DNA of 64,000 nucleotides from an uncultured Rickettsiales bacterium (GTDB taxonomy: Bacteria > Pseudomonadota > Alphaproteobacteria > Rickettsiales > Deianiraeaceae), in NCBI GenBank assembly GCA_946413485.1, contig CAMKKS010000001.1:4749-68748 (forward strand). The letters run 5' to 3'. Under the pieces are notes generated by a model. That model saw nothing but the letters and a program-made list of their open reading frames with translations. It was not told the origin of the DNA and searched no databases. The position numbers and the translations under genes are program-made. This document shows positions 2,361 to 55,769 of the stretch, piece after piece. Every line of letters begins with the position of its first letter. Positions within the stretch are counted from its first letter, which is position 1.

Positions 2361-2416
2361 ATTATTTAAAAATTTTTGATTTTCTTATATAAAGATATCT
2401 TTAAAAACACTTTAAA

Positions 2417-2452
2417 TGAGTTCTAGTTTTCGGATTGAAAGTTCTAGTTTTG
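2417..2452. repeat. GTTCTAG box pair
   Basis: GAGTTCTAGTTTT and AAGTTCTAGTTTT 22 nt apart, followed by AAAAATTCGATATTAAGGTATTTTTATATAAAG as in other islands. Confidence 0.5.
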
Positions 2453-2510
2453 AGTAAAAATTCGATATTAAGGTATTTTTATATAAAGAAAAATAAATAA
2501 TTTAAAAACT

Positions 2511-4200: not shown

Positions 4201-4290
4201 TTAAATTTCCTTTTAAAAAATTTTAATATTCTTATATTATAATATAATAAAAAACTTTTAAATGAGTTCTAGAACTCTCAAACAGGGAAA

Positions 4291-9019: not shown

Positions 9020-9047
9020 ATTATAACGTATTTTAAAGATTTGTAAA
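9020..9047 (-). promoter_or_regulatory. sigma70-type promoter TTTACA-N16-TATAAT
   Basis: TTTACA 9047-9042, TATAAT 9025-9020 on the minus strand; leader identical to the 2102 cassette. Confidence 0.6.
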
Positions 9048-9082: not shown

Positions 9083-9210
9083 CTCATAGATACTTCTATT
9101 TTGATCATATCTCACGTTAAACGCTCTATTTCGCGTTTTAATCGATTTGGTATAGGGATAATAAGGTTTAGTTTAAAGCTCTTAAAACAAGCGTTTAACA
9201 CGAAATATGA
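9083..9210. repeat. about 130-bp inverted-repeat element, copy 1 (inverted copy at 54388-54521)
   Basis: Arms TCATATCTCACGTTAAACGCTCTATTTCGCG / AACAAGCGTTTAACACGAAATATGA around a roughly 55-nt centre; arms and flank CTCTCATAGATACTTCTATTTTG recur reverse-complemented at 54388-54521 with an unrelated centre. Confidence 0.6.
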
Positions 9211-9227: not shown

Positions 9228-9260
9228 ACGTATTGAGCTTTTATAAAAAGTCTATTACGT
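9228..9260. repeat. ACGTAAT hairpin
   Basis: ACGTATTGAGCTTTTATAAAAAGTCTATTACGT. Confidence 0.6.
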
Positions 9261-9329
9261 TATAAAAAATTTTTTGATATTCTTTATATAAAGATATTTA
9301 AAAATATTTTAAATTAAAAGCTTTTAATA

Positions 9330-9385
9330 GAGTTCTAGAACTCAGTCAAAACTAGAACTCTCAATTTTAAAACTAGAACTCTCTC
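9330..9385. repeat. GTTCTAGAAC box array (3 boxes)
   Basis: GAGTTCTAGAACTC, AACTAGAACTCTC, AACTAGAACTCTC. Confidence 0.55.
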
Positions 9386-9438
9386 TAAAGTGTTTTTAAA
9401 GATATCTTTATATAAGGAAATTAAAAAAATAAAAAACA

Positions 9439-9514
9439 ACGTAATGACCTTTTCATAAAAGTGTATTACGTTGTTTTTATAACGTAATGAACAATCACAA
9501 AAAGCTCATTACGT
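9439..9514. repeat. two ACGTAAT hairpins preceded by TATATAAGGAAATTAAAAAAA box
   Basis: 9439-9471 and 9482-9514. Confidence 0.6.
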
Positions 9515-11449: not shown

Positions 11450-11720
11450 ACGTAATGAGCTTTTGAGAAAAGTCTATTACGTTGAAATTCTATATTTTAA
11501 AATTTTTTATTTTATTATATAATATACAGATATAAAAAATTTTTTGTTCTTTAAAAAATACGTTATGAGTTTTTATGAAAAGTCTATTACGTTATTTTTA
11601 AACTGATCATTTTTCGATCAATAAAAAATACGTTATGAGCTTTTATAAAAAGTCTATTACGTTATTTTTGAATGCTCTTAAAAAAATACGTAATGAGTTT
11701 TCGAGAAAAGTTCATTACGT
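11450..11720. repeat. four ACGTAAT hairpins between spike gene and terminase
   Basis: 11450-11482, 11560-11592, 11630-11662, 11688-11720; TATCTGTATATTATATAATAAAA element at about 11515-11545 (inverted copy at about 57125-57150). Confidence 0.65.
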
Positions 11721-11783
11721 TGTTTTTAAAAAATTTCAATTTCCTTATATAAAGATATTATAAAAATATTTAATAAAATACCT

Positions 11784-22629: not shown

Positions 22630-22821
22630 ACGTTATAAGAAAATCGTAAAAGTTCATTACGTTATTTTTAGTTGAGATTAAAAAATACGTAATGAGCTTT
22701 TATTAAATCTTCAATACGTTGTTTTTAGTTTGAATTAAAAAATACGTTATAAGAAAATCGCAAAAGTTCATTACGTTGTTTTAAAAATACGTAATGAACT
22801 TTTAATAATTTTGAATAACGT
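22630..22821. repeat. four ACGTAAT-family hairpins in tandem
   Basis: 22630-22662, 22687-22719, 22744-22776, 22789-22821; followed by AAAAAATTTCAATTCTCTATATATAAAATATT box. Confidence 0.65.
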
Positions 22822-24895: not shown

Positions 24896-24903
24896 TATTT
24901 ATA
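24896..24903 (-). promoter_or_regulatory. T4-type late promoter box TATAAATA
   Basis: 23 nt upstream of fibre ATG 24873. Confidence 0.5.
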
Positions 24904-24962
24904 GATTTTTTAAATATTTTTAATAATATCTTTATATAGAAAACTGAAATTTTTTAAAAATA

Positions 24963-25202
24963 ACGTAATGAACTTTTATGAAAAGTCTATTACGTTATAA
25001 TTTTTTAAAGAGAGTTCTAGAACTCGTTCAAAACCAGAACTCTCGAATTCAGTTCCAGAACTAGAAAAACTAGAACCTTCAAAATGAAAACTAGAACTCT
25101 ATTAAAAGTTTTTATTTAAAATATTTTTAAATATCATTATATAAGGAAATTGAAAAAATAAAAAAAAATACGTAATAAGCTTTTACGAAAAGTCCATTAC
25201 GT
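24963..25202. repeat. complete composite non-coding module
   Basis: Hairpin 24963-24995; five GTTCTAG/CTAGAAC boxes 25003-25093; TATATAAGGAAATTGAAAAAATAAAAAAAAA; hairpin 25170-25202. Confidence 0.65.
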
Positions 25203-27119: not shown

Positions 27120-27407
27120 ACGTATTGAACTTTTATGAAAAGTCTATTACGTAATAAAATTTTTTTCAATTTCCTATATAATAATATTATTAAAAATATT
27201 TTAAATAAAAGCTTTAATAGAATTTGAGAGTGCTCTCAAATTCGATACTAAAAGTATTTTTATTATATTCTTTATATAAAGAACCTTGAAAATTGTTTTT
27301 GAAGTGAAAGAGAGTTCTGGAACTAGAGAAAAACTAGAACATTTAAATGTTTTATGAAAATTGAAAAAAAAAATACGTAATGACCTTTTCGCAAAAGTCT
27401 ATTACGT
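27120..27407. repeat. composite non-coding module
   Basis: Hairpin 27120-27152; TTTCAATTTCCTATATAATAATATT box; GAGAGTGCTCTC palindrome; TTCTTTATATAAAGAA; boxes 27311-27341; hairpin 27375-27407. Confidence 0.6.
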
Positions 27408-32304: not shown

Positions 32305-33927
32305 TTAAACATTTTTCAAAAGATCGGCGTATTCTGAATCTTCTAAATCTTCCTCAGAATCTTCTTCTTTATCTTTTGTTATTTTGTTTAAATCATCAGC
32401 TTGAGTTGTGTACTCTTCAATTTCGTCACCGATAATAAATCCTGCATCTTCATAGAGTTTTCTGAAAGCTGGATCTTTGATTTCATGTTTGATATCAATC
32501 AGGTTCTGTTGAATTTCCTGCTCGGTGAATCCAAAAGTCTGTCTCATTAAGTTTGAAAATGACATCACGGTTCCACCGATATCTTTAGCCGAGGACCAGG
32601 AATCAATTTTTCCCTGTAAAACAACAGATTTCATTTTTTCTATAAATAAATTTTCATTAGAAAAAACAATTTCGATATCTGAATCTCTTCTGTTCCATTC
32701 AGACTCTTTTAAAACACCTGTTGAAATTACTTCACGTTTTAAAAGATCTTTAAAGAATTCACAATAAACTTTTCGAACTCTCGAGATAAAGTTCATAAAT
32801 TTAACATCTTCTGTTGTTGTATCGGTAGGGTCAGAAGAGAATGTGTGGTCAGCATCAGGGTCAATATCAAGATGTGAAGATGGAATGTGTAAAGAACGAT
32901 AAAGTTTTTTACAAAAATAGATAATATCTGTCAACTCACCTAAATTTCCGGACTCATCAATAGTTGTAACTTCAGTTCCTCTTGAGCCTGAACGGTTCGC
33001 AAACCAGTAATCTTCCACCATCGATGTGATGTGCTGCTGATTTGTTACTTCACCTGTTTCATTATTATAAAACTTTTTATATCTGAACTGCTTTTGAATA
33101 TCCTTCATGTACTCTTCTGCTCGTTTTGTAGGCAGATCTCCGACGTCAACGTTAAAAACTCGTCTTGACATCGACCGTGAAAATCTTAAAGGAATTAAAA
33201 GATCTTCTAAAGTTTTTAACATATTTGCGGATTTGATAGCATACTCAAGATATGAAAGACACAAATGGTCATGCCAGATACCGAAATCCGTTCTCACAAT
33301 CTCTTCAATCTGATATTCTTCGTCTTCTTTCTTGTTGAAATAAAGATTGCTCAAACCGACATTGTTATCTGCGTATTTCCATGTTTGAGTTTCAGCATCA
33401 AAATAAAACCCTACAGGGTCAATCATTCTGATAGCTTGAATTCCTTTTTTAATTCGTTTAGGGTCATACTCGCAGTGAACAATCATTTGACCATCAATAT
33501 ATGAACGTCTGATAAAATCAAAAAGGTTCTTATTAAAATTACCTAATTTAATAATCTTTTTCCATGCTTTTTCAAAACCTTTTTGAAGCTTTTGATTTTT
33601 ATCATTAAGATTGAACTTTAAAGGAAAACCATCATAGCTGAAAATAATTTCGTCAACAATGATATCAATAGCGTTTGTCACTTCTGCCTGCATCGCTACT
33701 TGACGATATGACATTATTTTTTCCATCTGTTTTAAGATTAAATCTGTTCTGTCAACCGATGTAAAATACGATGCTGCTTTAGCGTCATAATCGAAAAAGT
33801 CATTAAATCTCCCTGGACCTGTATCATCAGAAAGGTTGTTTATAACCTTCTCAGGATTTACAGTTGAAGATGCTTTAGTTTTTTTATGAGGGGTGAAAAA
33901 ATTTTTAAATTGTTCAAGTAATAACAT
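32305..33927 (-). CDS. portal protein (T4 gp20-like)
   Basis: 540 aa; DPKRIKKGIQAIRMIDP, LEDLLIPLRFSRS..RRVFNVDVGDLP..AEEYMKDIQ, NQQHITSMVEDYWFANRSG..TEVTTI parallel T4 gp20 ([72 protein letters not shown]). Confidence 0.9.
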   Translation of the reverse strand: MLLLEQFKNFFTPHKKTKASSTVNPEKVINNLSDDTGPGRFNDFFDYDAKAASYFTSVDRTDLILKQMEKIMSYRQVAMQAEVTNAIDIIVDEIIFSYDGFPLKFNLNDKNQKLQKGFEKAWKKIIKLGNFNKNLFDFIRRSYIDGQMIVHCEYDPKRIKKGIQAIRMIDPVGFYFDAETQTWKYADNNVGLSNLYFNKKEDEEYQIEEIVRTDFGIWHDHLCLSYLEYAIKSANMLKTLEDLLIPLRFSRSMSRRVFNVDVGDLPTKRAEEYMKDIQKQFRYKKFYNNETGEVTNQQHITSMVEDYWFANRSGSRGTEVTTIDESGNLGELTDIIYFCKKLYRSLHIPSSHLDIDPDADHTFSSDPTDTTTEDVKFMNFISRVRKVYCEFFKDLLKREVISTGVLKESEWNRRDSDIEIVFSNENLFIEKMKSVVLQGKIDSWSSAKDIGGTVMSFSNLMRQTFGFTEQEIQQNLIDIKHEIKDPAFRKLYEDAGFIIGDEIEEYTTQADDLNKITKDKEEDSEEDLEDSEYADLLKNV

Positions 33928-34098: not shown

Positions 34099-34839
34099 AT
34101 GAATTTTAATTTCACTCACTCAAATGAGTATTCTTTAAATAACTCACTTATTTGTGAGTGTATTAAACTTTACGGAATAGAAGCAAAACTGTTAAAAACA
34201 GAAAAAATCAACCTTGATAAAGAAGTTTTTGGAGACTGGTCTTCGATAAAGACAAATTCTTCTGATGTTTTCACAATTCATTTGCTGCCTGATAATGCTG
34301 AAAATTTTGATTTTTCTAACTATCAGTTTGGAGATTTTGGATTTTTAAACACTGAACAAACATCAGTTTACTGCTCTGCTCAAGAATGTTTAAAACTCGG
34401 ATTTGATACGAATTCGTTAATGAGTTCTTTAGTTGTTTTACCGTCAAACAAAGTGATGGAAATAACAAATATTGAGATTTTAAATCCTGGGGTTAATAAT
34501 CTCTGGGCATATTCCGACGCCAAGTGTGTTTTTAAACTTTCGTTGAATACTTACAATTTTAAGCTTCATGATGAGATTAAAAATTCTGATATCACAGCAA
34601 CTTTAGACATTCCTGAAAGCAACGAATGTATCAAAGATAAAATAGAAGATGAGATTGACTCTATTGATGCTTTAGATAATTACTTTGAAAAATTGATTAA
34701 AACAAAGAAAGAACAGGATTTTGAAGCTGAAGTTAATGACACTGTTTCAACTGTCGAACCTTTAAAACCGTCTTTAGATAAACGAGTAATGAAACCGGTT
34801 GTTAATAAGGACGAAATTGACCCGTTCGGATGGAATTAA
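34099..34839 (+). CDS. hypothetical protein, possibly neck/head-completion (position only)
   Basis: 246-aa ORF divergent from the portal gene; no motif I can name with confidence. Confidence 0.4.
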   Translation: MNFNFTHSNEYSLNNSLICECIKLYGIEAKLLKTEKINLDKEVFGDWSSIKTNSSDVFTIHLLPDNAENFDFSNYQFGDFGFLNTEQTSVYCSAQECLKLGFDTNSLMSSLVVLPSNKVMEITNIEILNPGVNNLWAYSDAKCVFKLSLNTYNFKLHDEIKNSDITATLDIPESNECIKDKIEDEIDSIDALDNYFEKLIKTKKEQDFEAEVNDTVSTVEPLKPSLDKRVMKPVVNKDEIDPFGWN

Positions 34840-34921
34840 ATCTTTTTCTGCTTAAATGTGATAAAATAAGAATAACAAAAAGTGGAAACGATAAAATAAA
34901 GAATAAAATAATAAATTCCAT
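34802..34921 (-). CDS. small hydrophobic peptide (39 aa, not in ORF track)
   Basis: AAGAGG SD, ATG 34921; MEFIILFFILSFPLFVILILSHLSRKRFNSIRTGQFRPY; overlaps the 3' end of 34099-34839. Confidence 0.35.
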   Translation of the reverse strand: MEFIILFFILSFPLFVILILSHLSRKRFNSIRTGQFRPY

Positions 34922-35000
34922 TTTGACCTCTTTTAAGAGTATTTATTTGAAATATTTTTAAATATTCTTTATATAAGGAAATTGAATTTTTTTAAAAATA

Positions 35001-37196: not shown

Positions 37197-37796
37197 TTAT
37201 GGTTGATATTCTGGTTCTTCTTCTGGTTCTTGAACTGGAGTTTCTGGTTCTGAATTTTCCTGTTCTGGTTCTTCAGAATTACATTTACATTTGCAGTCAC
37301 ATTTTTCTAAAAGATCTGTGTCTTCAGTTGAAATTTCAATCTGTGAAGGATCTTCCTCTTTTGGAGTAACCACAATTGTCAGCAAACCGTTCACATATTT
37401 TGAAGATATGTCACAATCCATATAAGTATCAGGAAGTCTGAAAATTCTCTCTGCATCTTTAAAGGATATATTCTGTTGAACCCATGTAATATTCGGATTG
37501 CAGCATGAGCATTTACAGTTTCGGCTGTCTAAACTCTTATGCGAATCTTCGATGGTTGCGACAACTTTTATCACATTTCCAACATAGGTTAATTTGATAT
37601 TTTCCGGCTTAAATCCAGCTAAAGCAATGGTAAATACAAGCTTTTTACCGGCATAACCGATGTTTGTTAACGGATATCTCTGAACTTCAGATTTTTCATT
37701 AAAAGGATCCTTGAGAAGTTTCTCTGCTTCAGAAAGGATAGTGTGAAGTGGGAATTTAGTTAAATTGTTGTCATTATAGTTTCTTACGTAGTACAT
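37197..37796 (-). CDS. small heat-shock protein (Hsp20 / alpha-crystallin domain) with Cys-cluster inserts
   Basis: ..YPLTNIGYAGKKLVFTIALAGFKPENIKLTYVGNVIKVVATIE..FRLPDTY..SSKYVNGLLTIVVTPKE; CKCSCCNP insert and CDCKCKC plus an acidic/Pro tail. Confidence 0.75.
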   Translation of the reverse strand: MYYVRNYNDNNLTKFPLHTILSEAEKLLKDPFNEKSEVQRYPLTNIGYAGKKLVFTIALAGFKPENIKLTYVGNVIKVVATIEDSHKSLDSRNCKCSCCNPNITWVQQNISFKDAERIFRLPDTYMDCDISSKYVNGLLTIVVTPKEEDPSQIEISTEDTDLLEKCDCKCKCNSEEPEQENSEPETPVQEPEEEPEYQP

Positions 37797-42257: not shown

Positions 42258-42863
42258 TTAAAATCCTTTTTTAACAATATTTATACTATTCAAATATTTT
42301 TCAGTGTACTTTTTAAAATCTTTATCTGAAATTTCAACAGGATAAAAATCATTTTCGGGGTTGTCAACGCAAACGTTTATTCTTGGAACTTCATTATCCG
42401 TAGGGGATTTTTCATGTGTATGGCCGTGGAAAATCATCAAACAATTTGACTCATCAAAAATCTGTCTTAATCCTTTCATTTTAGGATCCATTATCTGATT
42501 TTCATTTAACGGATAATGGCAAAGAAAATAATCCCCTAAAATGATATAATCTTCAACAGCTAAAAATCCGCACTCTAAATAAAAAGAGTCAGGAAATTTA
42601 TCGTGATTTCCTCGGATTAAAATCTTTTTCCCTTTAAGATTTTTAAGAATTGTTTTAAACATATCTTTATTTGTTTTATTTAAAAAAGCAATATCCCCTA
42701 GGTGAAAAACAATATCGTCGTCAGATACTTTTTCGTTATATCTTTCAAAGATTGTTTTAATACAGTCAATAACGCCTTCTGAAGAAAAATCAAACGGACG
42801 GTTACAGTATTTAATAATATTTTGATGGCCAAAATGCTGGTCGGAAGTTAAAAATATTTTCAT
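42258..42863 (-). CDS. calcineurin-like metallophosphoesterase
   Basis: SDQHFGH, LGDIAF, RGNHDK, CHYP, FHGHTH: the full MPP motif set. Confidence 0.8.
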   Translation of the reverse strand: MKIFLTSDQHFGHQNIIKYCNRPFDFSSEGVIDCIKTIFERYNEKVSDDDIVFHLGDIAFLNKTNKDMFKTILKNLKGKKILIRGNHDKFPDSFYLECGFLAVEDYIILGDYFLCHYPLNENQIMDPKMKGLRQIFDESNCLMIFHGHTHEKSPTDNEVPRINVCVDNPENDFYPVEISDKDFKKYTEKYLNSINIVKKGF

Positions 42864-42929
42864 TTAAAATCCTTTTTTAATTTTAATAATTATATATCAA
42901 AATTTTAAAAATGTGAATTTTTAAAAAAT

Positions 42930-43450
42930 ACGTAATGAACTTTTAGTAAAAGTCTATTACGTTATAAAAAAATTTTTTCAATTTCCTTATATAAAGATAT
43001 TTAAAAATATTTTAAATAAAAAGCTTTTAATAAAGTTCTAGTTTTTCTAGTTCTAGAACTTTTGAGAGAGTTCTGGTTTTGATTTGAAAGTTCTAGTTTT
43101 GAGTAAAAATTCGATATTAAAAGTATTTTTATATATTCTTTATATAAAGAATATCAAAAAATTTTTTATAACGTTATTCAAAATCACGAAAAGCTCATTA
43201 CGTTGTTTTTATAACGTAATAGACTTTTACGAAAAGGTCAATACGTTGTATTAAAAAAATTTCAATTTCCTATATAATAATATCTTTAAAATAAAAACCT
43301 TTAAATTAAGTTCTAGAACTCGAATTTAACTCGAACTCTCAAATTGAAAACTAGAACTTATTCAAAAATGTTTTAAAAGATATCTTTATATAAGGAAATT
43401 GAAAAAATAAAATTATTACGTAATGACCTTTTGCGAAAAGTCTAATACGT
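42930..43450. repeat. double composite non-coding module (archetype)
   Basis: Hairpins 42930-42962, 43171-43203, 43214-43246, 43418-43450; box arrays 43034-43101 and 43308-43357; CAATTTCC(T)TATATAA boxes; TTCTTTATATAAAGAA palindrome at about 43137-43152. Confidence 0.7.
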
Positions 43451-43517: not shown

Positions 43518-45020
43518 TTAGTACTTTCTTGATGGTTTAGCAAGTACACTTGGTGCCTGCCTTGCGAGAACAGTATTCGCAAAGCTTACGCCAAATGAAC
43601 GAGCGTAGGTCTTTGCACGGTCATTGCTCTTAGGATCAGAAACACCTGGAGTTGTAGCCAAAGCGTAACGAGTTTTAGCAATGATAACAGGCTGACCGGT
43701 AACGTAATCTGTAACCTTTGTGAAGGACAGAGGAACATACGGACAGAAGAAGCCCATAGCATCACGGCTGTTAGCGCCCTTGTAAAGAACGGTGCAGAAG
43801 TCGTCCTTAGCATACTGATCGATAACAACCTTGTAGCGGTTATCGAATACACCAGCAACACCACCGGAAACAGGAGCGATAATATCGGAATTAGTAGGAG
43901 CCAGCTGGAATGAACCAACCTGTTCTAACATGGTAGCAACCATTGGAGAAACCAGAAGGATATTACCTTGTCCACGCTTTGTATCTAAACCGATAATTGC
44001 GGATTCTTTAGCAATACGAATTGCTTGAGCACGATATCTTTCAATTTCCCAACGACCATCAGGAACCTGAACATTAGTCTGAGCACCGAATACAGTATCA
44101 GGTAACCAGGTAGAATTATCCTTAACAAAATCAACGATTTCACGGTCAATTTCAGCCTGAATTTCGTACTGCATCAAGCTCATCAGTTCTTCATCAGCGG
44201 TTAAACCGTGCTGAGCTTTTAAGTCCTGATAAAGTTCAACAGTGTACTTACCTTTCAGAGCACGAGAATCAGCGGCAATTGGTTTTCTTGAAATACTGAA
44301 ACCAACTTCACGCATTTCGTCGCCAAGGTGTTCAGCTTCAACTGTCTTATAAGGACCAGTGAAGTTCTTCAGAATGTGACCGAAAGAAGATTCGTTAGTG
44401 TACACTGCGGTTACTGTCAGATTAGTAACAGCTGTGCCGATATCAAATTTATCGCCAACATTCAGATTTTGATTTACATGATTTGTAGTATTGTCTACAT
44501 CAACAGTAGCAAGGATCTTGTCGTCTTCGATGTACAGAACATAACCTTTATCAGCACCGGCAGAATTCTTGATCTTTGAAGTAGAAGTTTGAACGGTACC
44601 AGCCTGAACAGCAGCCTTAATTAAATCTGCATCAGTCAAAGAAACCTGATAGATAACACCAGCTGGTTTTGGACGATCGTCAACTTTCTTAAGACCATCA
44701 CCAAGATACTGATTAACGAGAGCATAGATAAAGCCGGTAGGCATGCTCATTGGCTGAACACCAAGTAATTCGTTAGCAATCAGATTTGGATAGATACGTC
44801 TAATCATAGGGATTATGATTGGGGTGAATTGAGCAACGTCACCGGTTAAAGTACCTTCACTCAAAGTTTTCTGAATATCAATCTGAGTGTTTTCAATAAG
44901 TTGAATAATTGTTTCTTTTTGAGAATCTGTCATCGGACCGAATTTTTCAGATTCCAAAACACTTTTTGCAAATTCATTAGAGGTTGCCTTCTGAACTGCT
45001 TCGCTTAATAACATATCCAT
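43518..45020 (-). CDS. major capsid protein (T4 gp23-like)
   Basis: 500 aa; IIPMIRRIYPNLIANELLGVQPMSMPTGFIYAL parallels T4 gp23 MGMVRRAIPNLIAFDICGVQPMNSPTGQVFAL; several L-x-E sites in the first 60 residues; visibly higher G+C than neighbours. Confidence 0.9.
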   Translation of the reverse strand: MDMLLSEAVQKATSNEFAKSVLESEKFGPMTDSQKETIIQLIENTQIDIQKTLSEGTLTGDVAQFTPIIIPMIRRIYPNLIANELLGVQPMSMPTGFIYALVNQYLGDGLKKVDDRPKPAGVIYQVSLTDADLIKAAVQAGTVQTSTSKIKNSAGADKGYVLYIEDDKILATVDVDNTTNHVNQNLNVGDKFDIGTAVTNLTVTAVYTNESSFGHILKNFTGPYKTVEAEHLGDEMREVGFSISRKPIAADSRALKGKYTVELYQDLKAQHGLTADEELMSLMQYEIQAEIDREIVDFVKDNSTWLPDTVFGAQTNVQVPDGRWEIERYRAQAIRIAKESAIIGLDTKRGQGNILLVSPMVATMLEQVGSFQLAPTNSDIIAPVSGGVAGVFDNRYKVVIDQYAKDDFCTVLYKGANSRDAMGFFCPYVPLSFTKVTDYVTGQPVIIAKTRYALATTPGVSDPKSNDRAKTYARSFGVSFANTVLARQAPSVLAKPSRKY

Positions 45021-49858: not shown

Positions 49859-50443
49859 ATGAGTATTGAAACTTTACAAGACGCTTATAATAAAATTAAA
49901 ACCACCAAATGGTCATTTGTTAATAATTTTAGAGCAATGATTTCATTTGATAACGGGAACATTTGTTCTGAACTCGGTTTAGACAAAGACGAGAAGGTAA
50001 GAATTGAAAGCGGCGATGAGGAGGTTTATCTTCAAGATATAAATATTCCTGCGCTGTCTCAAACACCGATTTCAAATTTTATAAACTTTCAGAATTTTAT
50101 TACGCCATCGGCTGCTTTTGATGCTTATGAGTTAAAAGCTCATTTTTTAGACCATGACCAAATGAGAATATGGAAATTCTGGTCAGCTCTCTTTTTTGCT
50201 CAAAAGAATTCTTACCCTGATCAGTGTAAATTCACTGTTTCAATTTTTAAACTGCCGGATTATCCAGGTGAAGAAGAGCACGTTGTCGCAAAATTCTATG
50301 ACTGTGTGCTCAAAGGCGTTTCCCAGGTGGATTTTAAAAATTCAACAAAAGACACACAGGTTATTCTTGAAGTTGATATAGATATAATATCACCAAAATG
50401 TGAAATTTTTTGTAATAACCTTGATTTTTCAAATTTTCAATAA
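49859..50443 (+). CDS. distant tail-tube-fold protein (gp19/gp54/gp48-like), paralogue 4
   Basis: ..LQDINIPALS..YELKAHFLDHDQMRIWKFW..VLKGVSQVDFKN..VILEVDIDI follows the block order of paralogues 1-3; weak. Confidence 0.4.
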   Translation: MSIETLQDAYNKIKTTKWSFVNNFRAMISFDNGNICSELGLDKDEKVRIESGDEEVYLQDINIPALSQTPISNFINFQNFITPSAAFDAYELKAHFLDHDQMRIWKFWSALFFAQKNSYPDQCKFTVSIFKLPDYPGEEEHVVAKFYDCVLKGVSQVDFKNSTKDTQVILEVDIDIISPKCEIFCNNLDFSNFQ

Positions 50444-50456
50444 AGGATTTTAAAAA

Positions 50457-51341
50457 ATGATTGTAGAAGAATTAGATAAAGATATTGAAGTTGTCGATTT
50501 AGAAAAGGATAATTTACTTGACGGCCTTCCTGAGGATTTAAAGAAAAAGCTTCAGGAAGCAGATTTGAGCAAAAAGGAAGAAAATCTTTCTGAAATTTTA
50601 GAAGATAAAATTGAAACCGTTGTTAAAGAAGAATATAAAATTGACAGAACTTTGATATCTCAATCTGAAGACGAAACAGAAGTTAGACTGCCAGATAATC
50701 GTATTGTTCATATAAGAAAGTGGAAAATTAAGGATAAAAAGAATTTTGATAATTCAAAAAACTGGCTTGAAGCTAAAACAGCGCTTGTTTATAACTGTGT
50801 TGCTGAGGATATTGCTTTAGATCAGGAGGAATTTAATTTTCTTTTATTCAAAATAAGAGAATTGTCTGTACATGATAAAATGAAATTTACTTTTATCTGT
50901 CCTGAGTGTAATTCTGAAGAAAAACTAGAGCTTGACCTTTCAAAACTTGTAACAACTAAAGGTGGCGAATACTCTGATATTGTTTCTGGTGAAAACACTT
51001 TTAAGATGGGAGCAATCACAAACAAAGATCTTTACGAAGCGTTTAATAATTCAGATGTTTCTGAATTTAATCTCTTTATAAATGATTTTATATTTCATAT
51101 TAAAGAATTAAACGGTAGAAAAATTGAATCTGATAAAGATTATGCCGAAGTTGCCGATTTTATCGCGAATTTAGACGCCGACTTTGCTAATGATATTTTT
51201 AGTCAGTGGTTAAAAATGAGATTTACTTTAGTTTTCGATAATGTTATTGAATGTAAAAAGTGCGGGGCTAAAAATGTTGAAAACTTTTCAACTTTGCCTG
51301 AATTTTTCCCTGAATCATGGCGTGTAGTTGAAAATATTTAA
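50457..51341 (+). CDS. hypothetical protein with two CxxC pairs (zinc-ribbon-like)
   Basis: 294 aa; FICPECNS .. ECKKCGAKN. Confidence 0.45.
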   Translation: MIVEELDKDIEVVDLEKDNLLDGLPEDLKKKLQEADLSKKEENLSEILEDKIETVVKEEYKIDRTLISQSEDETEVRLPDNRIVHIRKWKIKDKKNFDNSKNWLEAKTALVYNCVAEDIALDQEEFNFLLFKIRELSVHDKMKFTFICPECNSEEKLELDLSKLVTTKGGEYSDIVSGENTFKMGAITNKDLYEAFNNSDVSEFNLFINDFIFHIKELNGRKIESDKDYAEVADFIANLDADFANDIFSQWLKMRFTLVFDNVIECKKCGAKNVENFSTLPEFFPESWRVVENI

Positions 51342-51368
51342 AGATATTTTTATATAAAATCGAATAAT

Positions 51369-51678
51369 ACGTAATGAGAAAATCATAAAAACTCATTACG
51401 TATTTTTTTTATTTAAAAATAACGTAATAGACTTTTCATAAAAGGTCATTACGTTATAAAAAATTTTTTTTTGATATTCTTTATATAAAGAATTATAAAA
51501 ATACTTTTAATATCGAATTTTTAACAGTTCTGGAACTCTCTCAAAAAGTTCTAGAACTAGAAAAAACTAGAACTTAATTAAAAGCTTTTTATTTAAAATA
51601 TTTTTAAATATCTTTATATAAGGAAATTGAAAAATAAAAAAAAATACGTAACAAGCTTTTCATAAAAGCTCATTACGT
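51369..51678. repeat. composite non-coding module
   Basis: Hairpins 51369-51401, 51422-51454, 51646-51678; TTCTTTATATAAAGAA; boxes 51527-51575; TATATAAGGAAATTGAAAAATAAAAAAAAA. Confidence 0.65.
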
Positions 51679-51701
51679 ATTATTTTAATAAGATTTAAAA
51701 A

Positions 51702-53210
51702 TTACATGTATGCAGAAAGTTCTTCCCAGTCTGGGAATCCGCCGGCATCAATCATTTTTAAAGCAAGAACAGCAGATCTTACGGTCAACTGTTTGTTACG
51801 TTTTTGTGCGCTTACAACAATTTCCTTTCCTTCGATAATATCGTTAAAATCAACACCTAAAGATTGAGCATAAGATTTTAACGCATTTTCAGAAAATGCA
51901 CCTTTCTTAAGCTGAGCTTTCAGAATATCAAAAATTCTGTTATAAACCTGTCTTTCTGTCAGCCAAACATCAACGAATGCGGATCTTGAAATAATGGCTT
52001 GGTCAATCTTTGAAGCCGGTTTATTTGTGATAAAAATCATAGAACCTTCAAAGAAGAACTTGTTAGGACACCAAACTTGCTCTTCATTCTTAGGTGGAAC
52101 TCGAGAGAACCAGGTTACGCCACCAGCTTTAAACTGAGCATCACACTGAGCTGAGTATTCTTTAATTTCATTATCTGACATTTCACGAGTAGGCATGAAA
52201 CCGTTCAGATATTCCATTGTGTTCTTGCCGGTTGTATCAAGAATAGGTTTTAACATAACAACGATATCGTCATTTGATAAAATATCATCAGCTTCATCAA
52301 AAACATTAACAGCTTCACGGCCTCTGAAGCATTCAACATAGAATGACTGAGGTGAAACTTTCATACCTGCATGGTAGTCATATTTAATTCCGCTTTTCTT
52401 TACTTCCTCTTCCATAACCTTCGTTACATGATAGGTTTTTCCAACACCACCCATACCGCAGCAGATAAAGGATTTTGTAATTCCTTTACAAACAGCATAG
52501 GTTAATCTTTCAATTACATTAAAAATTCTTTTAGGGTCACAGGTTGGGTGGTTTTCAAATTCTTTTTCAGCCTGCTTTAAAGTCTGCTCTGTTTCATTTT
52601 CTTCAGGACGACCGTTTTCAACTTCAACAAGGAACTTGTTCCAATCTTCTTCAGCATTGTTCATTTTAACATACTGCTCAAAAGCTTCTTTTGAAACTCT
52701 TGATTTTGTCGGCCAACCTTTAGCTCTGGTGAATTCATGACGCTGTTTTAAATTACCAACATTAAAAGGCGCTTCGTCAAGCTCTTCAACAGATTCTTTA
52801 ATTCCTAAAAGATCGTTAATTGTATACTTTCCTGATTTTCCAGCTCTGATGAGATTTGAAAGGGTTTTCCAAATTTTTACAACATTTATTGACTCTTCAA
52901 AATAGCAAGAAGTAGTAGGGCATGTGAAATTAGTGTTACCTGGAGCCCAGTAATCGATTGAACTTAAAGTAACGAAATCTTTAGGAGCATCAGCAAAATT
53001 GCTCATTCTGTTTGAAAAATTCAAACGCATCATAGCACCTGATGAGTTCAGCATTCTCACACCTGAACCTGTTTCTTTAGCTTTCTTAAACCACTCAACA
53101 CAAAGTGGTCTGAAAGTTCCGCCAAATTCCTTTCCAAAAAGAGAGCCATAAGCTTTAGCAACTTTTAAAGCATCTTTTGGATTAAAATTTGCTTCAAATA
53201 ATTTTTCCAT
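51702..53210 (-). CDS. AAA+ / P-loop ATPase with unknown 230-aa N-terminal domain
   Basis: Walker A CCGMGGVGKTYHV, Walker B VNVFDEADD, FITNKP sensor-like, AIISRSAF. Confidence 0.6.
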   Translation of the reverse strand: MEKLFEANFNPKDALKVAKAYGSLFGKEFGGTFRPLCVEWFKKAKETGSGVRMLNSSGAMMRLNFSNRMSNFADAPKDFVTLSSIDYWAPGNTNFTCPTTSCYFEESINVVKIWKTLSNLIRAGKSGKYTINDLLGIKESVEELDEAPFNVGNLKQRHEFTRAKGWPTKSRVSKEAFEQYVKMNNAEEDWNKFLVEVENGRPEENETEQTLKQAEKEFENHPTCDPKRIFNVIERLTYAVCKGITKSFICCGMGGVGKTYHVTKVMEEEVKKSGIKYDYHAGMKVSPQSFYVECFRGREAVNVFDEADDILSNDDIVVMLKPILDTTGKNTMEYLNGFMPTREMSDNEIKEYSAQCDAQFKAGGVTWFSRVPPKNEEQVWCPNKFFFEGSMIFITNKPASKIDQAIISRSAFVDVWLTERQVYNRIFDILKAQLKKGAFSENALKSYAQSLGVDFNDIIEGKEIVVSAQKRNKQLTVRSAVLALKMIDAGGFPDWEELSAYM

Positions 53211-53242
53211 TTAAAATAATCTCCAATAACAAGTATTTTATT

Positions 53243-53250
53243 TATTTATA
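53243..53250 (-). promoter_or_regulatory. T4-type late promoter box TATAAATA
   Basis: 33 nt upstream of ATG 53210. Confidence 0.45.
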
Positions 53251-53280
53251 AAATCATAAATATTTATAAAAGAGGTTTAT

Positions 53281-53676
53281 ATGAATTTTAAAGATTTTTT
53301 CAACTTAAACGAGAGTTATGACAATAAGATAATGAAGAACTCAGAGGCTTATAAAAATATTTTAAAAATTTTTAGCAAACACAAAATTAAAGTTAAAAAT
53401 TTAATGACGATTGCTCTTAAGAGCCAAAATTATATTTCCGTCGTTCCTGATTTGGATTTAGACAATTTTTCATTTGAATGTAGAATAAATAAAATCTCTT
53501 CTTTAAAGAAAGAAGATTTTTTCAATCTTTCTGTTGATTTTGGAAAGGTTTTTTCAGTTGAGTCAGCTTTGATTTTATCTGAAAAATTAAAATCTGTAGC
53601 TCTTTGCCTTAAAGAGCTTAACGATTATTTAAAAAATGTTGATATTTTAGAATTTTACGATCCCGACGATCTATAA
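53281..53676 (+). CDS. hypothetical protein with CTS-like N-terminus
   Basis: 131 aa; MNFKDFFNLNE/SYD. Confidence 0.55.
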   Translation: MNFKDFFNLNESYDNKIMKNSEAYKNILKIFSKHKIKVKNLMTIALKSQNYISVVPDLDLDNFSFECRINKISSLKKEDFFNLSVDFGKVFSVESALILSEKLKSVALCLKELNDYLKNVDILEFYDPDDL

Positions 53677-53871
53677 AACTTCTTCATCCTCGTCTCTAAA
53701 TCTTGGTATTAACGCAATAGATTTAATCTCAAGATTTTCAAAATCAATTTCAGGTTCTTGATAAAAATCATAAGAATTTATCTTTGGTTCTAAAAAAGAA
53801 TCTTTAAGAAAAAATTCTTTTAATCCTAGTTTTTCATATAAAGAATCTTCTAAATTTTCTTCATATTTCAT
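53671..53871 (-). CDS. hypothetical small acidic protein
   Basis: 66-aa ORF. Confidence 0.45.
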   Translation of the reverse strand: MKYEENLEDSLYEKLGLKEFFLKDSFLEPKINSYDFYQEPEIDFENLEIKSIALIPRFRDEDEEVL

Positions 53872-53910
53872 AATCCCTCCAAAATCACTCTTTATAAAAG
53901 AGATTTATGA

Positions 53911-54126
53911 TTATTCCTCAATTTTATAAAAAATAAATTCAGCACAAGTTTTTCCTTTAAAACCATTATCAACCCACTTTGAACATTTAGCAACGTATTC
54001 AGCTTTTCCTAAAGGAATTTGTGGAACTGTGTTTTCTACAGGATTTGAAGATCCCATAATAATAAAACCAAACCATGCTATTGTTAAAGTAAATAAAACA
54101 GCAATCATTATTATAAATTCTTTCAT
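53911..54126 (-). CDS. small single-pass membrane protein
   Basis: MKEFIIMIAVLFTLTIAWFGFIIMG then a Cys-containing soluble tail. Confidence 0.5.
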   Translation of the reverse strand: MKEFIIMIAVLFTLTIAWFGFIIMGSSNPVENTVPQIPLGKAEYVAKCSKWVDNGFKGKTCAEFIFYKIEE

Positions 54127-54127
54127 T

Positions 54128-54325
54128 TCAATTACCTTCTAAAATATTTTTAACTAACTTTGAAACATAATCTTTATAAGAACCTTCAAACTCTTTAAAA
54201 TCACAACTCTCAGAAGATTGATAAAGAACATTGTAACCTGTTAATGTTTTTGTGATTATCATTTTCTTATCTTTGAGATTTATCTCAGTTCGTCCAAGGT
54301 CAAGATTTATTTCGACTTTCTTCAT
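54128..54325 (-). CDS. hypothetical small protein
   Basis: Start moved to MKKVEINL (AAAGGAT SD); track start 54358 lies inside the -10 box of its own promoter. Confidence 0.5.
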   Translation of the reverse strand: MKKVEINLDLGRTEINLKDKKMIITKTLTGYNVLYQSSESCDFKEFEGSYKDYVSKLVKNILEGN

Positions 54326-54346
54326 TTCAAAATCCTTTTTGTTGTT

Positions 54347-54375
54347 ATTATAACACATTTTAAATCATTTGTAAA
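54347..54375 (-). promoter_or_regulatory. sigma70-type promoter TTTACA-N17-TATAAT
   Basis: TTTACA 54375-54370, TATAAT 54352-54347. Confidence 0.55.
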
Positions 54376-54387
54376 CGATTTTTTAAC

Positions 54388-54521
54388 GCTCATATCTCTC
54401 ATTAAACGCTTGTTTTTCGCTTTCCATAGCTATTCTAATAGGAACGTATAGCTATAGCTTAAAATATGTGAAATAGAGCGTTTAACACGAGATATGAGCA
54501 AAATAGAAGCATCTGTGAGAG
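54388..54521. repeat. about 130-bp inverted-repeat element, copy 2
   Basis: GCTCATATCTCTCATTAAACGCTTGTTT .. AAATAGAGCGTTTAACACGAGATATGAGC + CAAAATAGAAGCATCTGTGAGAG; reverse-complement counterpart of 9083-9210. Confidence 0.6.
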
Positions 54522-54777
54522 TTCTAGTTCTAGTTTGGGTTCTGGTTTTTCTAGTTCTAGAACTCGGTTTAAAAGTTCTAGTTTTTCTGGTAAAGTTCTG
54601 GTTTTGAAAAAAAAATTCGATATTAAAAGTTTTTATATATTCTTTATATAAAGAACTTTGAATTTTTGTTTTTGAACTGATTTTAAGATAGTTCTAGCTT
54701 TTCTGGTAAAAGTTCTAGTTTTTAAGAGTTCTAGAACTGAATTCGAGAGTTCTAGTTTTAGAGAGTTCTAGAACTGT
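54519..54777. repeat. largest GTTCTAG box field (about 12 boxes in two blocks)
   Basis: Blocks 54519-54606 and 54690-54777 separated by AAAAATTCGATATTAAAAG..TTCTTTATATAAAGAA; boxes read (A/G)AGTTCTAG(A/T)(A/T)(C/T)T, several as the palindrome AGTTCTAGAACT. Confidence 0.7.
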
Positions 54778-54865
54778 TAAAAATTTGATATTAAAGTTTT
54801 TATTTAAAATATTTTTATAATATTATTATATAAGGAAATTGAAAAAAATTTTTTAAGAGAAAATA

Positions 54866-54894
54866 AAAAAGGTACTTTTAAAAGTACCTTTTAT
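54866..54894 (-). terminator. rho-independent terminator after flagellin gene
   Basis: AAAAGGTAC-TTTTAAAA-GTACCTTTTTT on the minus strand. Confidence 0.7.
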
Positions 54895-54912
54895 CAGTTT
54901 GATTGATTTAAA

Positions 54913-55728
54913 TTAGCCTAAAAGGCTCAAAGCGATTGAATTTTTCTGATTAGCTTGAGCTAAAATTGATGTGCTCATTTGCTGTAAAATCTGTTGAGCT
55001 GTGTAGTTTGCCGTTTCCTCGGCATAATCTACATCTCTAATTCTGGATCTCGCATCTGTGATGTTTGAAATTACATTTTCTTGATTTTCGATTGTTGATT
55101 CTAAACGATTTTGAACAGCACCTAAAGATCCTCGATAAGAGTCGACGTTTGCTATCATTTCGTCAAGCCTTGTAATTGCACCTTGAGAAGCATCAGCTGA
55201 AGTTAAATCCAAAGCTGTTGAAAAATCTGCGATTGATGACATACTTTTCAATCCAAAGTCGATTGTTTGATTAGCGTCAGCACCAACCTGGAATTTGACG
55301 GTTTTATCTTCAGTGAAAAGTTTTTGACCGCCGAATGATGTATCGGTCCCTATTCGAGTAATTTCAGAAGAAAGAGCGTTTATCTCTTCTTGTATAGCCG
55401 TTCTTTGAGAAGTTGAATTTGTTCCGTTTGAAGATTGTAAAGCTAAAACACGCATTCGTTGAAGCATCTCAGTAACTTGATCAAGAGCTCCTTCAGTAGC
55501 TTGTGTCATAGATATTGCATCATTCGCGTTTCTGTTTCCTTGTTTCAAACCGTCAATCTGTGAGGTCATTTTATTTGAAATTTGAAGGCCTGCTGCATCA
55601 TCTTTAGCCGAGTTAATTCTAAAGCCTGAAGACAATTTGTCATAAGATTTGTTCAGAGACTTTGTAGATTTGTTTAATCTGATTTGAGCAGTTAAAGAGG
55701 AAACATTTGTGTTAACATATAAAGCCAT
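54913..55728 (-). CDS. flagellin (short D0-D1 type, 271 aa)
   Basis: N-terminal NTNVSSLTAQ..LSSGFRINSAKDDAAGLQISNKM..GLKQGNRNANDAISMTQATEGAL..MLQRMRVLALQS and C-terminal LGAVQNRLESTIENQ..ARSRIRDVDYAEETANYTAQQILQQ..SILAQANQ..LSLLG are the canonical flagellin termini; AGGAG SD. Confidence 0.9.
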   Translation of the reverse strand: MALYVNTNVSSLTAQIRLNKSTKSLNKSYDKLSSGFRINSAKDDAAGLQISNKMTSQIDGLKQGNRNANDAISMTQATEGALDQVTEMLQRMRVLALQSSNGTNSTSQRTAIQEEINALSSEITRIGTDTSFGGQKLFTEDKTVKFQVGADANQTIDFGLKSMSSIADFSTALDLTSADASQGAITRLDEMIANVDSYRGSLGAVQNRLESTIENQENVISNITDARSRIRDVDYAEETANYTAQQILQQMSTSILAQANQKNSIALSLLG

Positions 55729-55769
55729 TTTGATTCTCCTATCAAGTTATTTTAGAAGTTCTATTTTTA

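Follow-up and report, generated by a model that had tools for sequence, protein, structure and literature searches.

The GTTCTAG boxes in the non-coding DNA of an uncultivated T4-like myovirus of 178.7 kb are, as judged from sequence, candidate DNA-level operator arrays for a dimeric protein that would gate a third class of promoter, apparently within terminator-promoter cassettes resembling the promoter-early stem-loops (PeSLs) of T4-type phages; to this reading a probability of about 0.5 is given. The window, that is, the whole stretch of 64,000 nucleotides that was analysed, is the structural region of this phage, whose host is probably a gammaproteobacterium of the gut or rumen, with Succinivibrionaceae or Aeromonadales as candidates. 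Ten box arrays are present in the window and more in both flanks, and they are located at operon boundaries (Table 1).

When both strands of the window were searched, 35 strand-wise matches to GTTCTAG were obtained; dinucleotide shuffles gave an expectation of 5.4 ± 2.2 and a maximum of 10. These matches correspond to 9 palindromic and 17 asymmetric sites, hence to 26 distinct exact ones, and seven more sites within the arrays are one-base variants (GTTCTGG or GTTCCAG), which gives a total of 33. The original prediction had spoken of more than 35 copies; the enrichment stands, and the number of sites was slightly overstated because the nine palindromes count on both strands. The 12-bp palindrome AGTTCTAGAACT occurs in 9 copies, compared with 0.01 expected. 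An extended consensus that had been proposed for all boxes, RAGTTCTAGWWCT, has 14 strand-wise matches and holds for the palindromic class only, the asymmetric class reading gaGTTCTAGTTTT.

All 35 matches fall in non-coding DNA, which makes up 9,996 bp (~16%) of the window, and none in the ~54 kb of coding DNA, so the boxes are indeed confined to the non-coding islands. All ten intervals in which they had been placed contain them, and the fourth is better bounded as 25012-25099. The comparison of coding and non-coding DNA with Markov expectation, which had been proposed as a check, revealed in the window an excess over every order from 1 to 3, the expectation for non-coding DNA alone being 0.3-0.7 (orders 1-2) and 4.8 (order 3). 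The tetranucleotide CTAG, which had been said to be generally avoided, shows an observed/expected ratio of 0.51 in coding DNA, in agreement with avoidance, and of 4.55 in non-coding DNA. A non-coding share of ~16% is unusually large for a T4-like genome.

The spacing of the boxes, which had been described as a loose 10-25 bp, was found to be 15-21 bp from centre to centre and to depend on the types of box that are neighbours. In the window, 11 neighbour pairs are 20-21 bp apart and 9 are 15-17 bp apart; in nine relatives the corresponding counts are 24 (20-21 bp) and 18 (15-18 bp). The distance is 15-18 bp in 25 of 25 asymmetric-to-palindromic pairs, 20-21 bp in 14 of 14 palindromic-to-asymmetric pairs, 21 bp in 5 of 5 palindromic-to-palindromic pairs and 20-21 bp in 13 of 16 asymmetric-to-asymmetric pairs, and the asymmetric boxes of any one array share a common orientation. 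The rule thus corresponds to ~2 and ~1.5 helical turns in an orientation-dependent manner, and it is also kept in diverged relatives. Concatenation of repeat units of fixed length cannot generate this dependence on the type of pair. No single shift of the binding register was found that turns all the observed spacings into whole helical turns.

The arrays belong to a cassette with the order hairpin H, fixed 18-19 nt A/T runs, element P (TTTCCTTATATAAAGATAT), AT-rich leader of 20-45 nt and box array, and two H-P units often converge upon a single array. The TATATAA-type boxes that had been noted beside the arrays could be sharpened to one conserved 18-bp element, TTCCTTATATAAAGATAT, which has 18 matches at ≤3 mismatches compared with 0.5 expected. 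Every array has at least one P element 20-45 bp off and pointing at it, with two degenerate P elements (at 4.2 and 43.27 kb); the direction of P is read from context alone, because the core of the element is almost a palindrome. Measured from this core, the centre of the first box tends to lie at ~26, 38 or 50 nt, a phasing that rests on few independent events because the leader-variant copies share descent. The boxes seem to lie downstream, not upstream, of P.

P is a third promoter-like class, apart from the 12 early sigma70-type promoters (TTTACAAATC..GTTATAAT) and the late promoters (TATAAATA). An acceptable -35/-10 pair was not found in P in either direction, nor was a MotA box (TGCTT motif) within conserved P and its flanks, and P matched none of the promoter consensuses already described; on its sequence, P was rejected as a sigma54 or MotA-box promoter. 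The genomic context favours P as a promoter that fires toward the boxes: in L228 the order is H-P-SD-ATG with no other promoter, and the ORF at that locus has homologues at other T4-like loci, while in L229 P is followed by an early promoter. In the window, P-AAGAGG-ATG precedes a 39-aa peptide, and the order H-P-TATAAATA-tail fibre gene is present. Against this reading, several P copies run antisense into gene 3' ends (1556, 11741, 51344). The hairpin H occurs in 35 copies, all of them intergenic, with 15-bp arms, a 3-nt loop and, in many cases, A and T runs at the flanks; it looks like a putative terminator. Three further leads were discarded. The G-U versus A-C asymmetry in H, considered as a clue to the transcribed strand, was inconsistent in its orientation relative to P. 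The Q element TTCGATAT was considered as a sigma28 (FliA) promoter, as suggested by the neighbouring flagellin gene, and its distance from the TAAAGTTT-like word is 16 nt, not 11. The inverted repeat TTTGAGAGTGCTCTCAAA (27.2 kb), considered as a second operator type, is a single-copy site.

Table 1. Box arrays and associated elements in the window, in order of position (P>, direction of P; strands of neighbouring elements in brackets).
Feature	Position	Strand	Details
Two asymmetric boxes	2417..2452	+	21 bp apart; between P> 2381-2398(+) and Q/P 2458-2490(-); upstream of gp4-like gene 2511-2990(+)
Single palindromic box GAGTTCTAGAACTC	4264..4279	.	20 nt downstream of degenerate P-like element TTATATTATAATAT
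Box array	9330..9385	-	3 sites; flanked by convergent P 9280-9297(+) and 9402-9419(-), and by H 9228-9260 and 9439-9471; downstream of large terminase gene; upstream of S (9106-9209) and early promoter 9020-9047(-)
Box-less P element	11741..11758	+	preceded by five-H hairpin run (11450-11720)
Further box-less P copies	1556-1573, 24926-24943, 34963-34980, 51344-51359	-	
Box array	25012..25099	-	5 sites; downstream of P> 25131-25148(-); followed by H 24963-24995, P> 24926-24943(-), late promoter TATAAATA 24896-24903(-) and tail-fibre gene from 24873
Box array	27311..27341	-	2 sites, variant palindrome GTTCTGGAAC and GTTCTAG; 28 nt downstream of P 27267-27285(+)
Box array	43033..43100	+	4 sites; between P> 42983-43000(+) and Q/P 43107-43153(-); downstream of capsid gene; ~120-210 bp upstream of early promoter 42889-42917(-)
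Box array	43308..43359	-	1 palindromic and 1 asymmetric site, plus degenerate CTCGAAC words
Convergent P pair	~43265-43283, 43380-43397	+, -	around array 43308..43359
Box array	51525..51575	-	3 sites; within module H H-P>-Q-boxes-<P-H (51369-51678)
Early sigma70-type promoter	54347..54375	-	TTTACA-N17-TATAAT, TG before; drives small ORFs 54358 to 53671
S element	54391..54496	-	long inverted repeat, arms CATATCTCGTGTTAAACGC, variable interior; long hairpin fold, z = -5.5; between array 1 and early promoter
Box array 1, focal island	54519..54606	+	6 sites; GTTCTGG variants at 54539 and 54595; palindrome 54553-54564
Q plus P' AAATTCGATATTAAA ... TTCTTTATATAAAGAACT	54613..54657	-	between both focal arrays; - strand reading is P pointing at array 1
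Box array 2, focal island	54690..54777	+	5 sites, centres 54695, 54716, 54732, 54753, 54769; asymmetric, asymmetric, palindromic, asymmetric, palindromic; spacings 21, 16, 21, 16 bp
P element TTCCTTATATAATAATAT	54820..54837	-	points at array 2; after flagellin-gene terminator 54867-54892

Comparison of strains separates the boxes from the DNA around them. In orthologous alignments, box cores differ at 4.9% of positions and array spacers at 13.0%, a 2.6-fold difference (Fisher p = 4.5e-4), and the cores thus appear to be under purifying selection relative to the spacers. The H-P skeleton persists at orthologous positions and the number of boxes alone changes: upstream of gp25, one degenerate box in one strain corresponds to six in another, and the ~170-bp unit of array, Q and P is present in two copies in the focal island (the one holding arrays 1 and 2) and in three in strain L186. 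The same cassette is carried by L193 and L194 (~77% DNA identity) and by other metagenome relatives, and L237 has arrays in its replication-gene region as well. At 70-77% identity, the relatives differ in how their arrays are arranged, and the core 7-mer GTTCTAG is identical.

Outside these relatives the arrangement was not encountered. The cassette is absent from Va1, the closest cultured phage, and a DNA similarity search of positions 50001-58000 against 50,697 phage records gave zero matches. A stringent three-box pattern returned 3 unrelated matches among 185,579 cellular species genomes, and thus pointed neither to an operator array in a host nor to a prophage copy. In viral contigs, GTTCTAG-N8-20 repeated three times gave >120 unspecific matches, mostly repeats foreign to the phage, and the palindrome plus one box gave 28, all of them chance pairs or an unrelated repeat. 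Applied to metagenomes, the stringent pattern recovered the true relatives together with unrelated contigs that carry tandem GTTCTAGAAC repeats. These contigs were set aside as a lead to the family of the binder, their genes being eukaryote-type (P-type ATPase, COR domain) or almost none, and the literature search on GTTCTAGAAC returned eukaryotic heat-shock elements only. Neither the box-array arrangement in T4-type phages nor work on this phage group was found in the literature.

In the operator reading, the boxes would be double-stranded-DNA sites at which a protein, probably dimeric and in all likelihood a product of the phage itself, binds in a sequence-specific manner, and would form cooperative, helically phased arrays as the variable part of a lineage-specific cassette. 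Since the arrays begin downstream of P, at a distance of ~25-50 bp, an operator or roadblock complex is the most likely role of the protein bound there, and through it a particular stage of infection may bring the onset or the arrest of transcription initiated at P. If a pair of P elements converges, a bound array could block both at once and so insulate the neighbouring operons. We infer that P is active and fires toward the boxes, that a protein binds them and that repression or activation follows; positions from +25 to +130 are unusual for operators of classical repression. That the boxes are sites of a dimeric regulator, as had been supposed, agrees with the nine palindromes, the spacing rule, the conservation of the cores, the phasing with P and the lack of a common RNA fold; against it, the ORFs of the window offer no binder candidate. 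The supposed control of flanking promoters is favoured by the conserved P class, yet it has to accommodate boxes that seem to lie downstream of P and at least one module situated between convergent gene ends. This module (51342-51701) lies between the ends of 50457-51341(+) and 51702-53210(-), and it cannot control any flanking gene because the gene ends there converge.

The binder was sought among 40 ORFs of the window, in which Pfam and PHROGs scans gave no match to helix-turn-helix or ribbon-helix-helix domains. A ParB-like lead was not supported: the gene at 57221-58039, two positions from the focal island, matches ParBc_2 with 18.1 bits against a cut-off of 23.6 (E = 0.003), has no PDB sequence match and belongs to an unannotated PHROG.

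The closest described relatives of the cassette are the PeSLs of T4-type phages, repeated units between genes in which a stem-loop resembling a terminator is combined with A/T-rich DNA and a conserved promoter, and which are associated with small ORFans (PMC2839356, Arbiol et al., 2010; PMC4122927, Comeau et al., 2014). They mark replacement breakpoints between close phages, with crossovers reported in the variable loops (PMC2839356; PMC4122927). The phage studied here shares with them the repeated intergenic composites, the ORFans, the breakpoints and the variability of the loops, and the layout of terminator followed by promoter is common to the H-P units. However, PeSLs have no box arrays, the box-adjacent promoter P (TTTCCTTATATAAAGATAT) is not a sigma70 consensus as the PeSL early promoter is, the H stems are AT-rich (ACGTAAT...ATTACGT) instead of GGGG...CCCC, and many units here are convergent pairs around an array.

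This likeness brings up the view that the cassettes are recombination or selfish elements, i.e., PeSL-type or MITE-like repeats that spread and are homogenised by phage recombination, with the boxes as hitch-hikers or recombination sites devoid of a regulatory function. Units of H, TTTACAAATC..GTTATAAT and an ORFan, which are separate from the box-bearing ones, do fit the PeSL definition. A difference in gene content between strains falls exactly at an H element: to the left of the H upstream of gp25 the genes of L186 differ from those of L187, L188 and L190, and to the right the strains are collinear (a single case). H loops diverge between strains at 23% compared with 4% for the arms, as expected if crossovers fall in loops; the arrays grow and shrink, and the modules are inverted-repeat structures. 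This explanation is nevertheless unlikely. Conservation is higher in the box cores than in the intervening spacers, relatives at 70-77% identity keep both the spacing rule and the exact 7-mer despite rearranged arrays, and a fixed skeleton with a changing number of boxes is unlike the presence or absence of a mobile element. Inverted P/H ends exist, but no transposase, target-site duplication or empty site was seen.

A role in replication, which had been offered as the alternative of an iteron or origin-binding site, can be weighed against the origins of T4. There, oriE contains 12-nt iterons, the role of which is still undefined, and oriF and oriG combine a middle promoter with an AT-rich downstream unwinding element (PMC3016281), so that promoter, AT-rich DNA and evenly spaced short repeats have a parallel in a T4-type genome. 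P, the AT-rich leader and the array might accordingly be read as a transcription-primed origin, with an R-loop from P in the AT-rich unwinding region as at oriF/oriG and the boxes as iterons for an initiator or accessory protein as proposed for oriE. The position of the arrays at operon boundaries and their presence in the replication-gene region of L237 would suit such a function, and convergent P pairs could start two opposed leading strands. Even so, an origin function is improbable and is disfavoured by how many arrays there are: the 64 kb contain 10 or more, by extrapolation ~25-30 per genome, compared with about 5 origins in T4. T4 has one such repeat array, against tens of arrays per genome by this extrapolation, and P has no MotA box. 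In addition, palindromic and asymmetric boxes are mixed instead of being uniform direct repeats. Their spacing comprises a regular class of 21 bp and a second one of 15-18 bp. No replication-initiator-like gene was found beside any array of the window, and the cumulative GC skew runs steadily across the window with a turning point at no array. An AT-rich unwinding element is not distinctive here, because the intergenic DNA of the window as a whole has only 22% GC.

It is still less probable that the boxes act in RNA, whether as a protein sponge transcribed from P, as a cis antiterminator by which polymerase would pass the H hairpins, or in the form of complementary RNAs from convergent P. The arrays lie within the predicted transcribed leader of P with their asymmetric boxes co-oriented, the H hairpins downstream would need read-through, and pairing is possible between an asymmetric box and the distal half of the palindromic box that follows, a possible reason for the short spacing of such pairs. 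However, the predicted folds differ between arrays (z from +0.7 to -3.4, low ensemble frequencies, differing partners) and an all-asymmetric array does not fold; the RNA-hairpin account of the spacing rule was abandoned for this inconsistency. The perfect 12-bp palindromes and the two-turn spacing of 21 bp are features of duplex DNA, the orientation of the arrays relative to P is variable, and in an Rfam search of the window tRNAs alone passed the threshold, the arrays matching no family.

Least probable is a role in genome organisation, in which the boxes would anchor or load a ParB/KorB-like, nucleoid-associated or packaging protein with a part in compacting, placing or marking the phage chromosome and not in the control of particular promoters: palindromic sites dispersed genome-wide in clusters, the weak ParB-like nuclease match two genes from the focal island and the one module that can serve no flanking gene would suit it, but that match is below the Pfam threshold and lacks PDB-sequence and PHROGs support, purely architectural sites would not be expected to be coupled so tightly and in phase to P, as every array is, and T4-type packaging, which is headful, requires no specific site.

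For the operator reading, the nearest functional counterparts are the dispersed operator networks of global repressors, exemplified by the C1 operators of phage P1, the KorB OB sites of IncP plasmids and the omega heptad arrays of pSM19035. As in those systems, many promoter regions across the genome carry the same short site, either palindromic or asymmetric, in clusters with both orientations that would be bound cooperatively. The differences are that the sites described here lie downstream of the promoter element, that the sequence of the box and the 21 / ~16 bp rule are their own, and that the genome is that of a virulent-type T4-like phage.

A comparison can also be made with the middle promoters of T4. 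These consist of a MotA box, (a/t)(a/t)(a/t)TGCTT(t/c)A, centred at -30, and a sigma70 -10 element, TAnnnT. P resembles them in being a third class and in that a conserved element precedes an A/T-rich -10-like sequence, whereas it lacks a TGCTT-type MotA box, its core is an 18-bp near-palindrome and it is followed by box arrays that T4 middle promoters do not have. It may tentatively be proposed that a hitherto undescribed transcription programme of the whole clade is involved, in which P would be governed by a global regulator that assembles on the phased arrays downstream of it according to the spacing rule, and not by sigma appropriation of the MotA/AsiA type; the convergent pairs would serve as protein-gated insulators between operons or would give rise to antisense "anti-late" RNA.

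Timed phage transcription has its reference model in T4, and to our knowledge no middle-mode mechanism is known for most T4-like phages outside the T-even group. In the phage described here, three promoter-like classes can be read from sequence alone, and to one of these classes belong arrays in which a conserved palindromic site is repeated under a spacing rule so strict that the geometry of the bound complex could be predicted from it. If the binder is found, it would represent a new global regulator with its operator network in a virulent-type phage and would account for the unusually large non-coding fraction of a T4-like genome, while providing compact, portable promoter, operator and terminator parts. 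In that event, the PeSL idea would be extended from gene-shuffling cassettes to tunable operator arrays, the copy number of which varies between strains.

The GTTCTAG sites, here termed boxes, appear to be selected, DNA-level elements and candidate protein sites. Over its two strands the window holds 35 matches, where 5.4 ± 2.2 would be expected; these correspond to 26 distinct exact sites: nine copies of the perfect palindrome AGTTCTAGAACT (0.01 expected) and 17 asymmetric boxes of the form gaGTTCTAGTTTT. Seven further sites with the variants GTTCTGG or GTTCCAG lie within the same clusters. The original prediction placed the boxes in ten intervals inside non-coding islands; these intervals are correct with small shifts only, and all 26 exact sites fall in non-coding DNA (9,996 bp); the coding DNA, about 54 kb, contains none. 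The Markov comparison that it proposed, with models of orders 1-3 trained on non-coding DNA, gives 0.3-4.8 matches against the 35 observed. Its statement that CTAG is avoided holds in coding DNA (observed/expected 0.51) and is reversed in non-coding DNA, where the tetranucleotide is 4.6-fold enriched. Three other palindromic tetranucleotides likewise occur about half as often as expected in coding DNA (ACGT 0.55, GATC 0.51, TGCA 0.50), a depletion that suggests restriction-site avoidance. CTAG is concentrated in the boxes, and ACGT in hairpin elements (H).

Within arrays, box centres lie 20-21 bp (n = 11) or 15-17 bp (n = 9) apart in the window, and 20-21 bp (n = 24) or 15-18 bp (n = 18) apart in nine relatives. 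When arrays are oriented so that asymmetric boxes read GTTCTAGTTTT, the distance follows the pair type: 15-18 bp from asymmetric to palindromic neighbours (25 of 25 pairs), 20-21 bp from palindromic to asymmetric (14 of 14), 21 bp between palindromic boxes (5 of 5) and 20-21 bp between asymmetric ones (13 of 16). Fixed-length repeat units, whether the spacer moves with the upstream or the downstream box, cannot yield this pattern, and the spacing itself therefore appears to be under constraint. In orthologous alignments, strain divergence is 4.9% in box cores and 13.0% in array spacers (p = 4.5e-4), and 2.5% in other intergenic DNA; the arrays turn over fast and the motif is retained.

A few recurring parts make up the islands: H, a promoter-like element (P), an AT-rich leader and a box array. 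H is an imperfect palindrome of 33 bp, ACGTAAT-N19-ATTACGT, whose 15-bp arms enclose a loop of 3 nt; its 35 copies include tandem runs at 11450-11720 and 22630-22821. The arms are of two conserved kinds, ..TGAGCTTTT and ..TAGACTTTT, which pair imperfectly, and between strains 23% of loop positions and 4% of arm positions diverge. P is the 18-bp near-palindrome TTCCTTATATAAAGATAT (18 matches, 0.5 expected), found at a fixed 18-19 nt from H and directly followed by the leader of 20-45 nt, of which one variant (Q) carries the word ATATCGAA; the boxes come after it. The most frequent layout, H-P>-boxes-<P-H, comprises two units converging on one array, while the focal island, which holds two arrays, has two tandem units, each of boxes, then Q, then P (three in strain L186). 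At least one P, 20-45 nt away, points at each array, the copies at 4.2 and 43.27 kb being degenerate, and several P copies are without boxes. First box centres lie about 26 (10 copies), 38 (19) or 50 nt (5) past the end of the P core, with a minor class at 31-33 nt (4), a phasing that rests on few independent events because the leader variants are related by descent. Another element (S), a predicted long hairpin (z = -5.5 and -3.4) with no Rfam match, lies between box module and early promoter at two islands. The inverted repeat in the usual box position is single-copy in the window and is kept with one mismatch in relative L193.

P is a third promoter-like class, recognised from sequence and predicted to fire, beside the early and late ones. 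Canonical T4 late promoters, TATAAATA, stand directly upstream of most late genes. The 12 sigma70-consensus promoters, TTTACAAATC..GTTATAAT, are near-identical, spacer included; the tRNA region contains three, and most are located upstream of small ORFans beside H, and are therefore taken as PeSL-like early cassettes. Their H and early-promoter units fit PeSLs as defined in the literature, where ORFans are flanked by a stem-loop terminator, A/T-rich DNA and a strong early promoter (PMC2839356, PMC4122927), and are a new instance of this known kind. Upstream of gp25, a strain gene replacement (L186:600-1120 versus L187, L188, L190:640-1080) has its breakpoint at H: to the left, a 169-aa ORF is replaced by a radical SAM gene of opposite strand, and the right side is collinear. 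Also upstream of gp25, three strains have one degenerate box (GTTATAG) versus six in L186, and the flanking H-P and Q-P-H are unchanged. An acceptable -35/-10 pair, TATAAATA and a MotA box are all absent from P.

The direction of P was read from context, since its core is almost palindromic. In the related locus L228, AAGGAGG lies 17 nt past H-P and leads into the ATG of a 98-aa membrane protein, with no other promoter between; two further T4-like loci encode homologues of this protein. Within the window, the P at 34963-34980(-) precedes AAGAGG-N7-ATG and a 39-aa hydrophobic peptide, whose ORF overlaps the 3' end of a neck-protein-like gene, 34099-34839(+), and the P at 24926-24943(-) lies ahead of a late promoter and a tail-fibre gene. 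P also lies ahead of an early promoter in L229, and tandem P-box units in L194 and the focal island are oriented toward downstream genes. The H-P order, terminator then promoter, is that of PeSLs too. From these gene contexts and this order, P is taken to fire toward the boxes, and the centre of the first box would then be some 25-50 bp downstream. Some P copies run antisense into the 3' ends of genes, and the module at 51342-51701, between two convergent genes, is able to serve neither.

Coordinates of genes and elements in the window
Feature	Position	Strand	Remarks
gp23 capsid protein	43518-45020	-	
gp20 portal	32305-33927	-	
Tail sheath	29735-32203	-	
Large terminase	9579-11432	-	
Flagellin-like protein, 271 aa	54913-55728	-	Flagellin_N and Flagellin_C domains
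crAss001_48/Sequestin-family protein	4473-4724	-	accessory gene in structural region
DUF285 protein	7634-8296	-	accessory gene in structural region
Hsp20-family protein	37197-37796	-	accessory gene in structural region
Metallophosphoesterase	42258-42863	-	accessory gene in structural region
39-aa hydrophobic peptide ORF, unannotated	about 34804-34923	-	MEFIILFFILSFPLFVILILSHLSRKRFNSIRTGQFRPY; behind P and AAGAGG ribosome-binding site
tRNA-like gene	6925-6995	-	no clean anticodon in ARAGORN; Rfam tRNA 31 bits
Early sigma70 promoters, ~28 bp each	2124, 7110, 7409, 7506, 9020, 20566, 21768, 21879, 22174, 42889, 54347	-	
Early sigma70 promoter, ~28 bp	35047	+	
S element	9106-9209 and 54391-54496		19-bp inverted arms CATATCTCGTGTTAAACGC, variable 60-70 nt interior
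Inverted repeat TTTGAGAGTGCTCTCAAA	27223-27240		between P-like element and Q, usual box position

The window (GC about 29%) carries the genes of a T4-type virion module, those for baseplate hub, tail tube and baseplate proteins included, and seven tRNA genes; the tRNA-like gene adjoins tRNA-Glu in this cluster, its Rfam score just over threshold. No DNA match was found among 50,697 phage records. The gp23 protein shares 60% identity with its counterpart in Vibrio phage Va1 and 43% with the capsid proteins of Campylobacter CP220-like phages. By exact-protein look-up, the window belongs to a 178,656-bp metagenome contig (ENA ERZ12289774 NODE_41); locus L189 is 99.85% identical, and strains of about 97% identity occur in many assemblies. 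The flagellin-like gene, right-hand neighbour of the focal island, is kept in all strains. Its product, which T4-like phages do not usually carry, hints at the host: the nearest named relatives are Succinivibrionaceae and Aeromonas flagellins (61-62% identity), which makes a gut or rumen gammaproteobacterium with an E. coli-type sigma70 the probable host.

The cassette recurs in relatives of about 77% DNA identity (L193, L194), with one or two boxes per site, and in the metagenome relatives L209, L212 and L228-L231. In L237 it lies outside the structural region, beside genes for thymidylate synthase, a radical SAM protein and DNA polymerase. A 41-kb stretch of Va1 lacks the cassette, and a stringent three-box pattern retrieved no such arrays from 185,579 cellular species genomes. 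Five unrelated contigs (L200, L201, L224, L234, L216) carry 24-34 bp tandem repeats around the same GTTCTAGAAC palindrome, with low coding density or eukaryote-type genes (P-type ATPase, COR domain); these repeats are probably eukaryotic satellite or heat-shock-element-like DNA picked by the search pattern.

The best-supported reading, taken as a working model, is that P is protein-gated through the arrays. A sequence-specific protein, probably a dimer, would assemble cooperatively on the boxes and gate transcription from P by occlusion or by a roadblock just past the start. At convergent modules, it would close off both directions together and thereby insulate operons. A scan of 40 window ORFs gave no DNA-binding candidate; a ParB-like match was sub-threshold and failed on further comparison. 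It is unlikely that the islands are origin-like elements: their layout fits the promoter, AT-rich unwinding element and iterons of T4 oriF/oriG and oriE (PMC3016281), but the number of arrays does not, and no initiator gene lies beside any array. Purely recombinational or selfish cassettes, with which the PeSL-like behaviour of H agrees, are improbable too, as they leave the conserved cores and the spacing rule unexplained. An RNA-level element would suit the predicted transcribed position of the arrays, yet it is very unlikely given the palindromes, the two-turn spacing and the inconsistent folds: the arrays have no Rfam match, the folds predicted for eight array strands have no architecture in common, and the all-asymmetric array has no predicted fold. 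Chromosome-organisation sites, which leave the tight coupling of arrays to P unexplained, are hardly likely at all.

In the searchable literature and the cultured relatives examined, no description was found of PeSL-like cassettes with arrays of a conserved palindromic site and a strict spacing rule, or of a promoter-like element, neither sigma70 nor late in type, linked to arrays of this kind. The box arrays would gain in significance if a regulator of their own and a middle programme independent of MotA were demonstrated.
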